A DNA stretch of 20,000 bases, taken from IMG/VR virus record IMGVR_UViG_2541047494_000006. The stretch is one strand, 5' to 3'. Numbering within the stretch: the stretch's first letter is position 1; every line of letters begins with the position of its first letter. Both the position numbers and the translations under genes were made by a program. The notes beneath the pieces are model-generated. The model searched no databases. It was not told the DNA's origin and saw only the letters and a list, made by a program, of their open reading frames with translations. Below are positions 372 to 20,000 of the stretch, one piece after another. The DNA comes from an uncultured virus (IMG/VR IMGVR_UViG_2541047494_000006). Taxonomy: Duplodnaviria; Heunggongvirae; Uroviricota; Caudoviricetes.

Positions 372-462
372 TGGAAGAGAGGAAGGGATTTGAACCCTCG
401 TATCAAATTAATTGACCTAATAGTTTAGCAAACTATCCTCTTTACCACTTGAGTACCTCTCC
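372..462 (-). tRNA. tRNA-Ser (anticodon GCT), long variable arm, encoded CCA
   Basis: Reverse complement gives acceptor GGAGAGG/CCTCTCT, D-loop AAGTGGTAAA, anticodon arm ATAGT-TTGCTAA-ACTAT, a long variable arm, T-arm GAGGG-TTCAAAT-CCCTT and 3' TCCA. Confidence 0.95.
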
Positions 463-9957: not shown

Positions 9958-10062
9958 AAAACCGAAAAATCGTTGACAATATCCGTTTTGAGATTTATAA
10001 TTAAAATATCAAATAAAAAATTTAAAAAACAAAACCGAAAAATCGTTTTAAAAAATCGTTTT
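9958..10062 (+). promoter_or_regulatory. Consensus ardA promoter with repeated AAAACCGAAAAATCGTT operators
   Basis: TTGACA(9973-9978)-17-TATAAT(9996-10001). Operator copies at 9958-9974 and 10031-10047, plus a half-site near 10051-10062. Confidence 0.8.
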
Positions 10063-15062: not shown

Positions 15063-16508
15063 ATGAAAGAAGAATTAAATATAGTACCATTTTTAGCTGA
15101 GTCTTTGTCGATAAATAAAAAATGCTATAAACTCATAGATAAATATTATAATGAAAATAAATTAAAATATTCAAGTTTGGCCAAAGATAATATTTTTTAT
15201 AATTCAAGGATAGCAAGTGAAGGAAGTATAATTCAAGAATATTATTTTAAAAAATCTTTAGGTATTCTATTAGAAAGAGATGAAAAGAAAATAACAAAAA
15301 TATTTAAGGTTGGTTATACAATTGCTTACAATTATATTATTTCTATCCAAACATTTAAAGCAAGTACCTTTTTAAGAAAACTTATGTTAAAAAATAAAAT
15401 TGAAAGTTTTTCAGAGGATGAATTAAATGGTAATATGTTAGTTGCAATTTCTTTATGTGGAGCTTTAGGGAAAGAAGTTGACGAATCAGATGAAATATAT
15501 ATAAAAGTAATTAGAAATTTGATTCTAAGAAATGAAAATTATAAACATGAAAAAGTTTTATCTATAGATAGACTAAGTAAAGATGAACAAAAACTCATTA
15601 GTAAGATAGAATTAAGATTAAAATCTACATATTTAAAAGAATATATTCCAAGCTCGTATACAATTGGAATTGATGGGAGTATAGGAACTTTTAATTTAGA
15701 TGCTTTAACAGATTTAGACAGAAACCTTTTAGGATTTGATTATATATATGACCTGGAAGAATTAAGTTTAATTTCAATTGTAGGAAGAGACATACTTAAA
15801 TCTAAACAAATACAAGAATTAATTTTATGTTACTGTAATTTACAAAAAAATATAGAAGATGAAAATAGCATTAATTATGAGGATTTATTTAAATTTATAA
15901 TTCCTGCTATAGACATAAGATATTTGGCAAGAGAATATAAAAAAGCTAAACAATTTTTCTTTAATAATTTTGATGAAGAATTAAAAGAATCTATAGAAGA
16001 AAAAGACCTTAAATTGGATAGTATTAAAAAAGAAAATTCATTATTGGAGGCAGAAAATGAAAAGTTAAAATCAGAACTAGAATTGTTGCAAAAAGATAAA
16101 CTTAGATTAGAAAATGAAATCAAAGCACAACTTACATCTAAAGAAGAATTGGTTCAATTAAGAAATTTTATGTTCAACCAGCAACAAGAGCAAGAAGAGA
16201 AAGTTTTAATTGATGAAAGTATAAATTTAAAAAATATAAAAGCAATAATATTTGGTGGACATCCAAATTGGATTTTAAAAATGAAAGAAAAATTAACTAA
16301 CTTTGAATTTATATCAGCAGATACAATTAATTTTAATGTAAACATATTGAATAGTTATGAGTATGTATTTATAAACACTAATTTTATAGGACATGCTATG
16401 TACTACAAAATTATAGAAAATTTGAACGAAGATAACAAACTTAGATATATAAATAATATAAATGTAGATAGAGCAATAGAAGCTATTAAAAATGCTATTA
16501 AAATTTAA
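15063..16508 (+). CDS. Coiled-coil protein with a C-terminal DUF2325-like domain
   Basis: Long heptad region, then IIFGGHPNW...VFINTNFIGHAMYYKI, a DUF2325-like pattern recalled from memory. Confidence 0.7.
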   Translation: MKEELNIVPFLAESLSINKKCYKLIDKYYNENKLKYSSLAKDNIFYNSRIASEGSIIQEYYFKKSLGILLERDEKKITKIFKVGYTIAYNYIISIQTFKASTFLRKLMLKNKIESFSEDELNGNMLVAISLCGALGKEVDESDEIYIKVIRNLILRNENYKHEKVLSIDRLSKDEQKLISKIELRLKSTYLKEYIPSSYTIGIDGSIGTFNLDALTDLDRNLLGFDYIYDLEELSLISIVGRDILKSKQIQELILCYCNLQKNIEDENSINYEDLFKFIIPAIDIRYLAREYKKAKQFFFNNFDEELKESIEEKDLKLDSIKKENSLLEAENEKLKSELELLQKDKLRLENEIKAQLTSKEELVQLRNFMFNQQQEQEEKVLIDESINLKNIKAIIFGGHPNWILKMKEKLTNFEFISADTINFNVNILNSYEYVFINTNFIGHAMYYKIIENLNEDNKLRYINNINVDRAIEAIKNAIKI

Positions 16509-16518
16509 GGAGCGTATT

Positions 16519-16887
16519 ATGATTGATATAGATATAAATAAAAGAATAAAAGAAATAAGGGAAGATATAAATTTATCACAACAAAAATTCGGAGAAAAGC
16601 TTGGTGTGAGTAGAGATGTTATAAGTAATATAGAAAATAATAGAGTAGAAGTTAAAACAGTATTTATTACTCATATGTGTGAGGTTTTTAGTGTTAATCA
16701 AGTGTGGTTAGAAACTGGTGAGGGGAGGAAGTTTATTGAACAAGAATGTGATATTGTTTTAGGAGAAGTTTTTGCTAATATAACTGTATCTAAAAATGAA
16801 AATTTAAATGAATTGATTATAAATATTTCTAAATTAAATGATACATATATAAATAATTTAAATGAGATTGTAAAAGGTCTAATTTAA
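16519..16887 (+). CDS. XRE-family regulator (1 of 3)
   Basis: RIKEIREDINLSQQKFGEKLGVSRDVISNIE...VNQVWLETGEG. AAGGAG RBS before ATG 16519. Confidence 0.9.
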   Translation: MIDIDINKRIKEIREDINLSQQKFGEKLGVSRDVISNIENNRVEVKTVFITHMCEVFSVNQVWLETGEGRKFIEQECDIVLGEVFANITVSKNENLNELIINISKLNDTYINNLNEIVKGLI

Positions 16888-16906
16888 ATAGTGGGAGGTA
16901 TTATAA

Positions 16907-17287
16907 TTGTCTGATGAAACTATAAGTAAGAGAATTAGAAAGATAAGAAAAAATGCTAATTTATCTCAGCCAGATTTCGGGGGAAAATTAGGTGTCAGCA
17001 AAGATGTTATAAGTAATATAGAGTATGATAGGGTTGAACCCAAACCTTTACTTATTAATCATTTATGTAGTGTATTTAATGTTAATAAGGAATGGCTTAT
17101 AAATGGTACAGGTGATATGTATGTTTCTGTAAAAGAAGATATTTCTTCGATTTTAGGAGAAGTGTTCTATAAGATAGCTAGTTCAAAGGATGAAAATTTA
17201 AAAGAACTAATAATTAACATTTCTAAATTAGATGCTACATATATAGCGTCTTTGAATGAGATTGTAAAAAGGTCAATACAGAGGTGA
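16907..17287 (+). CDS. XRE-family regulator (2 of 3)
   Basis: Close paralog of the previous gene along its full length. TTG start with GGAGG. Confidence 0.9.
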   Translation: MSDETISKRIRKIRKNANLSQPDFGGKLGVSKDVISNIEYDRVEPKPLLINHLCSVFNVNKEWLINGTGDMYVSVKEDISSILGEVFYKIASSKDENLKELIINISKLDATYIASLNEIVKRSIQR

Positions 17288-17292
17288 TATTA

Positions 17293-17640
17293 ATGTGTGA
17301 TATAGGCAAGAGAATTAAAATCTTAATAGAAAATGAAAAAATAAAACAAGTTGAGTTTGCAAACAAGATAAAAGTTGACCCATCTTATATATCTAAGTTT
17401 CTATCAGATAAATCTAAAGTAATACCTAGCGATAGATTAATAGATGATATTTGTAGTACATTCAATGTTAATAAAGAATGGCTTAAAAATGGAGATGGAG
17501 AAATGTACATAGAGAATAAGTGTAATAGGAATATTTCAGAAGCGACTGACTTATTAATGGAACTTTCAATTGAATTTCAAGAATGTGCAATTAATCAAAT
17601 TAAAGACTTAATAAAATTGCAACATTCATTAAAAAAGTAG
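17293..17640 (+). CDS. XRE-family regulator (3 of 3)
   Basis: IGKRIKILIENEKIKQVEFANKIKVDPSYISKF...FNVNKEWLKNGDGEMY. GAGGTG RBS. Confidence 0.88.
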   Translation: MCDIGKRIKILIENEKIKQVEFANKIKVDPSYISKFLSDKSKVIPSDRLIDDICSTFNVNKEWLKNGDGEMYIENKCNRNISEATDLLMELSIEFQECAINQIKDLIKLQHSLKK

Positions 17641-18194: not shown

Positions 18195-18680
18195 ATGGGT
18201 AAAATGGATAAAAAAGAAGCTAAAAAATTTTTAAAGGTTGTAGATATGAATATAGATAAAATAAAGGAAGAAGCTACGAAAATTTATAAAGAATGCTACT
18301 TAATAGAAACAACTGATACTATAAGAATTTCTATAAATTTGAAAGGAGTTGTAAAAAGCACAATTTCAAGTTGGCAAGGCTATTCAGATGATATTTTTAA
18401 TATGAGAGAAATTATTGTCTATGAATTTAGTCAAGGAGAAGTTCAAATTGAAGATCTTTTAGGAGAACTTTGTTTTTTAAATGATTACGAAGAATTTGCT
18501 ACTTGGTGTGACACTGAAAGCGAAACTTTGAATTGGAATAGTTATGAAAAATTCAACAAAGAAAATTTTGACGAATTAGTCGAGAGAAATATAGAAGATA
18601 GTTTACCAGATTTTTTGGAAGAATTGAGCGAAAGTATAGAAAATTGTAAACAAGAATTAAAATCAATGATTGAAATTTAA
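18195..18680 (+). CDS. Acidic hypothetical protein (candidate anti-defence protein)
   Basis: 161 aa, strongly E/D-rich C-terminal half, AGGAGG RBS. Confidence 0.8.
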   Translation: MGKMDKKEAKKFLKVVDMNIDKIKEEATKIYKECYLIETTDTIRISINLKGVVKSTISSWQGYSDDIFNMREIIVYEFSQGEVQIEDLLGELCFLNDYEEFATWCDTESETLNWNSYEKFNKENFDELVERNIEDSLPDFLEELSESIENCKQELKSMIEI

Positions 18681-18713
18681 ATGAAAGAGTATTATTATTA
18701 ATGTATATAGTAT

Positions 18714-18944
18714 CTTTAAGATTAACTACGAGGGATTTAAAATATTTTTTAATTTATTTAGAAATGATATTATAATAAGAATTTTCAGATTAACTACAAG
18801 GGATTTAAATGTCAATTTAATTTATAGAGAAATGATATAATGGCAATTTTTTAGATTAACTATAAGGGATTTAAATATCAATTTAATCTATATCTATATG
18901 ATATAATATCACATTATTTTATATTAACTATGAGGAAATAAAAA
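18714..18944 (+). CRISPR. Degenerate type I-B CRISPR-like mini-array: 4 repeats, 3 mutually similar spacers, no leader, no cas operon in the window
   Basis: 29-nt repeats at 18714-18742, 18782-18810, 18848-18876 and 18916-18944 (core AGATTAACTAYRAGGGATTTAAAT). They resemble the C. difficile repeat GTTTTAKATTAACTA...GG.ATGTAAAT. Spacers are 39/37/39 nt. Confidence 0.8.
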
Positions 18945-18975
18945 CAGTGCATTCAGATAAATACACTGTTTTTTT
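18940..18975. terminator. Bidirectional terminator between the array and the convergent gene
   Basis: AAAAACAGTG...CACTGTTTTTTT. Confidence 0.75.
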
Positions 18976-18985
18976 AATGCTAAAA

Positions 18986-19285
18986 TTAGTCATTATGATA
19001 ACTTAATCCTTCGATTATAAATCCTATATTCGTCGTCATTTCTGCTTCATCACTTTGTAATATTCCTTCTGTAAATTCGCTATCGCTTGATAATGTTATT
19101 TTTTTCCTTGCCACCATTTCCAAAATTGTTTGAAATAGTTTAATTTTCATATTCTTATCAAGTCCAGCATATTGCAAATAGTTTGCTACTTCTTGCGAAA
19201 ATTTAGTTAACTCTGATTTAGTCATTTTTTTAGATAATTCTTTTCCAATGCTTAGATAAACTTTTTTAGATTGTTCAACATCCAT
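18986..19285 (-). CDS. 99-aa helical protein resembling the Cas8b C-terminal/Cas11 domain (AcrIB4-like candidate)
   Basis: ATG 19285 behind AAGGGG. The pattern IGKELSKK...LFQTIL...FTEGILQSDE...TNIGFIIEGL recalls Cas8b C-termini (by eye, unverified). Promoter TTGAAG(19340-19345)-17-TATAAT(19317-19322). Confidence 0.55.
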   Translation of the reverse strand: MDVEQSKKVYLSIGKELSKKMTKSELTKFSQEVANYLQYAGLDKNMKIKLFQTILEMVARKKITLSSDSEFTEGILQSDEAEMTTNIGFIIEGLSYHND

Positions 19286-19548
19286 TTTTTTCAACCCCTT
19301 TTTAGATTATAATTAAATTATATTTTAAAAATGCTAATACTTCAAATATAAATATTTTTGTTTAAGTATAAAACTGATTTCAATAATTCGGATTTTATAT
19401 TTAATAGATTGTGTTACTTAAAGTTAATAAATAAATTAGAAAGATGTATGGTACTAAAATCTAGTAATAAGTTAAAGTATAACAGCACTTTAGGGTTAAT
19501 TTTGTAGTAAGTATATAAAGTCAATATACTAAATTACAATAAAATTGC

Positions 19549-20000
19549 CAAAAAGCCCTCTCCTTTAGGTGTAGGGATGAAAGGTAAGGTCTTAATATAA
19601 AAAAAGTTAGAATAATGCTTGTAATCTAATACCACTACTGATACCCTATATTTAGGAGGTGTTAGTTTTTATGTATAAATCTAACGAAAATATAGTTTAT
19701 GATTGCAAATATCATATTGTATTTTGCCCTAAGTATCGTAAACCTGTTTTAGTTGGCGAAGTTGAAAAGATGTTAAAAGAAATACTACCATATAAAGCAG
19801 ATGAACTTGGAGCAGAAATAATAGAAATGGAAACTGATAAAGAACATGTGCACTTATTAATATCTTGTGACCCTCAATATGGAATTCATAAAGTAGTAAA
19901 AGGTTTAAAAGGCTTTAGTTCGAGAGTATTAAGAGAGAACTTTCCACATTTAAAGTCTAGTATGCCTAGCATGTGGACTAATAGTTATTTCGTAGGAACT
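19549..20000 (+). mobile_element. IS200/IS605-family element, left part
   Basis: Subterminal hairpin-like end AAGCCCTCTCCTTTAGGTGTAGGG followed by tnpA. The left boundary is approximate. Confidence 0.8.
19671..20000 (+). CDS. tnpA: IS200/IS605 HUH (Y1) transposase, partial
   Basis: Own translation: MYKSNENIVYDCKYHIVFCPKYRKPVL...DKEHVHLLI...LKGFSSRVLR...MWTNSYFVGT. HUH motif HVH, AGGAGG RBS. Confidence 0.95.
   Translation, partial: MYKSNENIVYDCKYHIVFCPKYRKPVLVGEVEKMLKEILPYKADELGAEIIEMETDKEHVHLLISCDPQYGIHKVVKGLKGFSSRVLRENFPHLKSSMPSMWTNSYFVGT

Follow-up and report, generated by a model that had tools for sequence, protein, structure and literature searches.

A copy-number-variable mimic of the host type I-B CRISPR array beside acrIB2 in Clostridioides difficile phages: a candidate RNA anti-CRISPR

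Introduction

What does a short array of CRISPR-like repeats do in a bacteriophage, directly downstream of an anti-CRISPR gene, when its "spacers" resemble one another? Clostridioides difficile relies on an active type I-B CRISPR system, all C. difficile phages known to us are temperate, and AcrIB2 is, to our knowledge, the single protein known so far through which a C. difficile phage escapes CRISPR. Such escape is relevant to phage therapy and to CRISPR-based antimicrobials against this organism.

The window analyzed here, a stretch of 20,000 nucleotides from an uncultured virus, is part of a C. difficile phage of the 131-kb phiCD211/phiCDIF1296T type. At positions 18714-18944, it contains four 29-nt repeats alternating with three "spacers" of 37-39 nt, and the phiCD211 record annotates this same stretch as CRISPR. 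We were interested in whether this array is a record of immunity, a source of guides, a set of promoters, a relic or DNA-level site, or a decoy for the CRISPR machinery of the host. Here, we report a comparative analysis of the locus within a survey that comprised the window together with 11 phage records and 61 IMG/VR loci (73 loci in all), with an emphasis on the kinship of the spacers, their potential targets, the genomic setting of the array and the conservation of its parts.

Results

A phage array in the register of the host repeat

The repeat and spacer boundaries proposed in a first-pass annotation of the window proved exact when all seven elements were read again from the sequence. 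All are given here on the plus strand. The first repeat, R1 (CTTTAAGATTAACTACGAGGGATTTAAAA; 18714-18742), is in the same register as the host repeat and identical to it at 21 of 29 positions, a value shared by R2 (18782-18810) and by the degenerate terminal repeat R4 (18916-18944), which ends in GGAAATAAAAA; R3 (18848-18876) matches the host repeat at 22 positions. Between these mimics lie three pseudo-spacers. S1 (18743-18781, 39 nt), the most conserved of the three, contains TGATATTAT as well as a TATAAT hexamer (18771-18776), and the motif TGATATAAT is present both in S2 (18811-18847, 37 nt), where it occupies 18833-18841, and in S3 (18877-18915, 39 nt), where it occupies 18899-18907. A repeat search of the window recovered the unit of 66-68 bp three to four times.

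In the real CRISPR arrays of the C. difficile genomes examined, the host repeat reads GTTTTATATTAACTA[A/T]GTGGTATGTAAA[G/T]. The repeats of the window and the host arrays have in common their register, a period of 65-69 bp and the core ATTAACTA...GG. Across the phage arrays, the mimics are identical to real C. difficile repeats at 18-24 of 29 positions (62-83%), which leaves 5-11 differences. The internal repeats follow the consensus GGGATTTAAAT, from which the last repeat deviates; repeats of this terminal type, which also form the sole repeat of single-unit phages, have 4 of 8 positions in common with the presumed 5' handle (manual count). Host repeats and mimics alike fold weakly or not at all.

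Only one other 29-mer of the window, at position 10058, reaches 21 of 29 identities with the host repeat; it was rejected as a mimic, being a ribosome-binding region that lacks the core. A metagenome scan with the internal repeat pattern, covering 80 loci with flanking DNA, yielded nothing new: apart from chance matches, it returned a single real array, unrelated to the present one, and two copies that do not differ from the window.

Spacers related by descent

The spacers had been noticed to resemble each other, and pairwise alignment against shuffled sequences upholds this for two of the three pairs. S2 and S3 are, by this measure, clearly paralogues (alignment score 19, with a shuffle mean of 5.7 and none of 2000 shuffles as high), and S1 and S2 probably are (score reached by 3 of 2000 shuffles); the S1-S3 score was reached by 255 of 2000 shuffles and is not significant when taken alone. 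The leader was considered as a further paralogue and rejected, given that its alignment with each of the spacers is not significant (scores reached by 440-1565 of 2000 shuffles). Tandem duplication of a repeat-plus-spacer unit, of which similar spacers are the expected outcome, explains the likeness with no promoter role needed, and, with S2 and S3 being paralogues, any motif common to the two counts once rather than twice.

Across the arrays, 22 distinct pseudo-spacers fall into just three families related by descent, and their G+C content is 15%, compared with 30% in 69 real host spacers. Chimeric S2/S3 spacers are found in JD033 and phiCD418. A conserved reading frame in the spacers is ruled out by their lengths of 36, 37, 39 and 40 nt.

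One-spacer mini-arrays with perfect host repeats were seen in three C. difficile genome contigs (L018, L077 and L044). A likeness between S1 and the leader of the L018 mini-array, matched by 3 of 300 shuffles, was discarded as not significant after 44 comparisons.

Immunity record or guide

In C. difficile, the protospacer-adjacent motif (PAM) is 5'-CCW, and the AAT of the repeat itself is no PAM (PMC4556805). When the spacers were compared by BLAST with 50,697 phage records, all significant matches in C. difficile phages turned out to be orthologous arrays, in which the matching segment is preceded by the AAA or AAT of the repeat and not by CCW. These matches bear on the published reading of the phiCD211 locus as a genuine CRISPR array that targets known C. 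difficile phages, a statement made in the discussion of PMC10732046 with a citation of Garneau et al. 2018. The annotation in the phiCD211 record agrees with that reading, and the repeat and spacer lengths are compatible with a type I-B array; nevertheless, S1, S2 and S3 alike find their phage matches only in orthologous arrays next to AAA or AAT, the spacers are mutually paralogous, and the repeats depart from those of the host at 5-11 of 29 positions. We consider a genuine targeting array barely credible. The published targets in known phages are most simply explained, judging from these alignments, as orthologous arrays flanked by repeats and without a PAM. The earlier remark that the spacers are not ordinary immunity records is thus borne out both by their paralogy and by the nature of their phage matches.

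The first-pass annotation had also suggested that the spacers are guides aimed at a family of promoters, with a PAM-flanked seed match expected especially upstream of cas6. Targets were sought at every CCW on both strands, and in G008, a cryptic-clade Clostridioides genome, at CCC, CCG and TCA as well, with reversed spacers as the control. In genome G002, the best seed was 8 for the 18 kb that surround the full cas operon (control 12), 8 for the 19 kb around a second array (control 9) and 9 for the region around a weak Cas3-like match there, which has no repeats (control 14). The sequences that precede the two cas6 genes of G008 gave seeds of 6-7, with controls of 7-12. The whole phiCD38-2 genome gave a best seed of 9, equal to its control, and the window itself gave 10, with a control maximum of 8, which was not taken as a target. 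A search of G002 for a partial cas operon with Cas6, Cas7, Cas5 and Cas3 models returned one operon only; the partial cas operon was covered in G008 alone.

Genome-wide counts in one host, made with the PAM plus 15 nt and up to 3 mismatches, were similar to the controls for the S2/S3 pattern (91+90 against 80+86) and, for the T-rich S1 pattern, somewhat above them (213+206 against 156+153), and the best PAM matches in that host do not extend. The suggestion of guides aimed at promoters is therefore not supported by the sequences covered, namely the G002 regions around the full operon, the second array and the Cas3-like match, the stretches upstream of cas6 in G008, this host genome and phiCD38-2.

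The more specific form of that suggestion is that the array encodes regulatory guides of the Cracr/crlRNA type, the PAM-proximal parts of which steer Cascade to repress a host promoter, for instance that of a cas or toxin gene. Conservation along the spacers peaks in the PAM-proximal 16-29 nt on the 5' side and is lowest towards the 3' ends, as would be expected of a guide, and viral Cracrs are often found in arrays, I-B candidates included, according to bioRxiv 10.1101/2024.10.29.618823. We nevertheless judge this reading very unlikely: no CCW-flanked match exceeds the reversed-spacer controls in the three G002 regions or upstream of the G008 cas6 genes, the genome-wide S2/S3 counts equal those of the controls with best matches that fail to extend, and neither phiCD38-2 nor the window, at a best seed of 10 against 8, provides a target.

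Genes and signals around the array

The gene at 18195-18680 (+) encodes a 161-aa homologue of phiCD38-2 gp27 (50% identity over 158 aa, E 3e-56) and also matches phrog_4337. As reported in PMC10732046, gp27 is AcrIB2, a validated type I-B anti-CRISPR; the acrIB2 locus of phiCD38-2-type phages treated there is the same locus as the one analyzed here, and the open reading frame at 18195-18680 is the phiCD211 homologue. R1 begins 33 nt downstream of this gene. Upstream of it, at 16492-17640 (+), three consecutive small helix-turn-helix genes (HTH_19/HTH_3) are candidates for anti-CRISPR-associated regulators; a 113-aa gene (phrog_10897) separates them from the acrIB2 homologue. Elsewhere in the window, a tRNA gene lies near the start (375-462, minus strand) and an IS200-type transposase gene (19659-20000, plus strand) runs past the end; an Rfam scan of the window returned nothing but a tRNA.

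A predicted leader promoter, TTGAAA-17-TATTAT (18670-18698, plus strand; consensus score 10/12), overlaps with its -35 the last codons and the stop codon of acrIB2, and transcription would start about 8-11 nt upstream of R1, as predicted from the consensus match only. All 55 related loci (55 of 55) have the pattern TTGNAA-17-TATTAT, the end of which lies 15-18 nt upstream of R1. At the opposite end, the last repeat passes directly into a hairpin and T-run (18945-18975; inverted repeat I12), a terminator common to the array and the convergent gene. This hairpin is the only stable element in a fold of 18681-18985, and apart from it, the RNA folds no better than shuffles (z +0.62). The A-run of R4, as read from the sequence, doubles as the U-tract of the terminator of the convergent gene, and the segment 18935-18975, which joins the A-rich end of R4 to the hairpin and T-run, is a two-way terminator. 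This double role may account for the departure of the last repeat from the internal consensus.

The convergent gene itself (18986-19294, minus strand; 102 aa, phrog_4021) is 73% identical to phiCD38-2 gp28 and is the usual neighbor of the array, which it accompanies in 54 of 55 loci, with G008 as the exception; a conserved downstream gene is likewise noted in PMC10732046. For its product, no match to a Pfam family had an E value below 0.01, and a comparison with the protein atlas was likewise empty. In two RNA libraries, the contig of this gene has a depth of 16,000-50,000, compared with about 700 for the flanking contig, and a third library contains a 303-nt contig that spans this gene alone. 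In lysogens, its expression may exceed that of every other gene in the region; alternatively, the depth may stem from DNA carry-over or amplification. Beyond it, a 49-aa open reading frame (19358-19507, plus strand) is annotated in phiCD211 as "CRISPR-associated endonuclease Cas3-HD". Relaxing the Pfam threshold to E 10 brought up no match, nor does the frame significantly resemble the host cas regions compared, and by this comparison the annotation looks unsupported.

Copy number, conservation and recombination

The segment 18600-19000 (401 bases) is 100% identical in three phages (four records), including phiCD211 and phiCDIF1296T, and has matches in 30 phage records, each of which derives from C. 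difficile or a close relative. Among the 73 loci, nineteen distinct arrays could be told apart, of which eight have four repeats, six have three, three have two and two have one; in phiCD481-1 and phiCD506, the minimal form consists of the promoter, one repeat and the terminator. An acrIB2 homologue is located upstream in 55 of 55 array-bearing loci. A search across the family turned up an AcrIB2 homologue in one of 112 genomes. The G008 locus (L223, G008:C23) carries a further, more divergent two-repeat array next to an acrIB2 that is about 57% identical, and it retains a TTGCAA-17-TATTAT promoter, an S1-like spacer (26 of the first 29 nt of S1 identical, manual count) and the terminator, with the usual downstream gene absent. 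Retention of acrIB2 and the array in the absence of that gene strengthens the link between the two.

When the window is compared with other phages, the leader is identical at 30-33 of 33 positions, R1 at up to 29 of 29 and S1 at 37-38 of 39 (in six other phages). The corresponding values are 68-78% over most of the length of the acrIB2 coding sequence and, in most phages, 80-83% for the downstream gene. Conservation of the leader and S1 above both flanking genes (91-100% compared with 68-83%), as far as such alignments go, argues against a decaying relic. We regard it as highly improbable that the array is a decayed CRISPR array, captured in the past and now without function, or that it acts at the DNA level, for instance as an operator or as the partition site of the neighboring parA module. 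The degenerate repeats, the copy number that varies through recombination, the presence of parA two genes away in phiCD38-2-type phages and an RNA without structure beyond chance would all fit such a site or relic. They are, however, set against the conservation just described, the upkeep of the promoter in all 55 loci, the persistence of the array with acrIB2 where parA or the downstream gene is missing (the window and G008), and the single-repeat forms, which would make a poor centromere.

Part of this conservation may be more apparent than real. Over 18195-19294, AR1086-1 (L004) is about 69% identical to the window within acrIB2, and the value jumps to 100% at S2 and beyond. Recombination breakpoints thus lie within the array of AR1086-1, and this switch, together with the chimeric S2/S3 spacers, indicates that recombination moves pieces of the array between phages. 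Such mosaic recombination may inflate the apparent conservation of the array.

Promoter-like boxes in the spacers

All three spacers had been described as containing promoter-like motifs 5-8 nt before the next repeat, and the spacing is as described: the boxes end 5 nt (S1), 6 nt (S2) and 8 nt (S3) before the repeat that follows, with TGATATAAT starting at 18833 and 18899 in S2 and S3, respectively. The string TGNTATAAT occurs 10 times in the 40 kb of the window (both strands). A consensus scan that called for at least 4 of 6 matches in both hexamers listed none of the three spacers, and no -35 was found.

These boxes raise the possibility of self-promoted tandem units, in which each spacer would serve as an extended -10 promoter for an RNA that begins with the next repeat. 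This would refine the reading of the array as a source of decoys, with the last repeat transcribed from up to four promoters, and we hold it to be possible, though clearly short of probable. A hexamer with at least 5 of 6 matches to TATAAT, located 4-9 nt before a repeat, is present in 18 of 22 pseudo-spacers compared with 2 of 69 real host spacers (A at position 2 and T at position 6 being required in this count), and despite indels in the 3' ends of the spacers, the box stays at a distance of 5-9 nt to the repeat. Of the 11 distinct S2-type variants that begin with GTC or GGC, 10 retain TATAAT, and S3 variants have TATAAT, TACAAT or TATATT. Similar boxes precede repeats elsewhere, namely TATAGT 3-5 nt before R1 in the leader and, in G008, TATAAT and TATTAT at distances of 5 nt from R1 and 6 nt from R2, respectively. 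The reported dose dependence of Racr action (PMC10651486) would also suit a multiplication of promoters.

Several observations pull the other way. Spacers with 15% G+C are prone to contain such boxes, which appear in 1069 of 5000 composition-matched shuffles (21%), and the 22 spacers represent only three families by descent. Three of the four S1 variants read TGTAAT where the window has TATAAT, with the key A lost; the TG of the extended -10 is a G/A polymorphism, present in 9 of 18 S2/S3-type variants (manual count); the spacers are without a -35; and their 5' block is conserved equally to the -10. Moreover, the leader promoter is already able to transcribe the entire array. What stands of the proposal that each spacer is a promoter is the -10 kept in the S2 and S3 families and in S1 of the window, whereas the missing -35, the polymorphic TG and the frequency of similar boxes in shuffled sequences speak against it.

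Discussion

Relation to known systems

The closest parallels to this locus are the Racrs, exemplified by RacrIF1 and acrIC5-racrIC1. As described in PMC10651486, these elements too are mimics of a repeat of the host subtype, carried on phages without cas genes, with a predicted promoter immediately 5', a terminator 3', an adjoining acr gene and single-repeat forms. The array analyzed here differs in that it usually comprises 2-4 tandem units with conserved, paralogous and very AT-rich spacers. It is also mostly not solitary, with four repeats in the window and only 2 of 19 distinct arrays solitary. The subtype is I-B, whereas the Racrs reported as tested in PMC10651486 are I-F, I-C, I-E and V-A, and identity to the host repeat is 62-83%, compared with 96-100% for the I-B units among the table rows listed from that paper. 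The pseudo-repeat strings searched are absent, on either strand, from the solitary-repeat-unit table of PMC10651486, the pipeline of which, as described there, discards matches associated with other repeats.

Cracrs, as presented in bioRxiv 10.1101/2024.10.29.618823, resemble the array in being phage-encoded and CRISPR-like, with degenerate repeats and conserved spacers, and can act alongside Acrs; no target, however, was found for the array here in the G002 and G008 cas regions compared or, genome-wide, in one host. The CRISPR arrays borne by C. difficile prophages (PMC4173771, PMC4556805) likewise are carried by phages and have repeats of the type I-B family. However, those arrays lie in the structural module and hold 7-24 diverse spacers with protospacers in other phages, in contrast to at most three paralogous spacers, none with a target, in the present case. 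In the portions of PMC10732046 available, the repeats of phiCD38-2-type phages are not treated, and the phiCD211 copy is read as a targeting array. We found no paper that mentions both AcrIB2 and Racr, and, judged by title and abstract, the matches listed for C. difficile together with Racr include none on this locus. What appears to be new here, from sequence comparison, is a Racr-like element of subtype I-B that is tandem and variable in copy number, has conserved paralogous spacers and is paired with AcrIB2.

A decoy RNA alongside AcrIB2

On balance, and with confidence only a little better than even, we interpret the locus as a phage-borne mimic of the host type I-B array that serves as a tandem-amplified, Racr-like RNA anti-CRISPR in partnership with AcrIB2. 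The interpretation draws its support from the mimicry of the host repeat, the invariable link to acrIB2 (55 of 55 loci), the promoter and terminator that belong to the array, the solitary forms, the conservation, and spacers that are not those of an immunity system. The first-pass impression of an RNA anti-CRISPR is in keeping with the AcrIB2 homologue upstream, the single-repeat forms and the conserved promoter and terminator.

Transcription, processing, Cas binding and inhibition would, under this interpretation, proceed as follows. The array would be transcribed from its own conserved sigma-A-type promoter that overlaps the acrIB2 stop codon, with read-through from the acrIB2 operon, reported to be highly transcribed in lysogens (PMC10732046), probably adding to the output, and transcription would end in the hairpin to which the last repeat is fused. 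The resulting RNA would present one to four repeat mimics to the Cas6 and Cascade subunits of the host, giving rise to crRNA-like molecules or aberrant complexes with "guides" that match nothing, in competition with the real crRNAs of the host. The dose would have been increased by tandem duplication of the unit of repeat and spacer, such that a copy number of one to four may work as a dose dial. Precedents for the main steps, namely acr-racr loci, dose-dependent Racr action and inhibition by non-targeting crRNA, are reported in PMC10651486. A bolder version holds that spacer promoters fire the repeat decoys, that one to four units tune the dose alongside AcrIB2, and that the locus would be both the first type I-B and the first tandem RNA anti-CRISPR; we put this forward tentatively and consider it rather doubtful.

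Available RNA data were inspected for signs of an array transcript. A run search indicated that RNA libraries contain up to 0.98 of the sampled words of the stretch. In a single read mapping, the library contigs cover 19002-19350 only and leave the array uncovered, and the raw reads include 44 partial reads with less than 95% likeness, the differences of which point towards the host repeat. These 44 are taken to be host crRNA reads.

Some features weigh against the decoy interpretation or go beyond it. The identity of the mimics to the host repeat, only 18-24 of 29 positions, and the agreement of the terminal repeat with the presumed handle at just 4 of 8 positions count against it. The conservation of the spacers, exemplified by the 26 of 29 positions of S1 kept in G008, is not explained by a pure decoy. 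Cloned AcrIB2 alone inhibits interference, as reported in PMC10732046, an activity for which the array is therefore dispensable.

Implications for C. difficile and its phages

If the interpretation of the array as an RNA anti-CRISPR is correct, several lines of work would be affected. The published reading of the phiCD211 locus as an array that targets other phages would be corrected. Experiments on AcrIB2 in lysogens would call for additional controls because the lysogen also has the array, and part of the anti-CRISPR effect of the phiCD38-2 lysogen would be due to RNA if the tandem RNA anti-CRISPR is real. Racr biology would come to include subtype I-B as well as tandem forms of variable copy number, which current searches for solitary repeats pass over. 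For the phages themselves, an RNA partner at the acrIB2 locus would amount to a second layer of counter-defense against the type I-B system of C. difficile.
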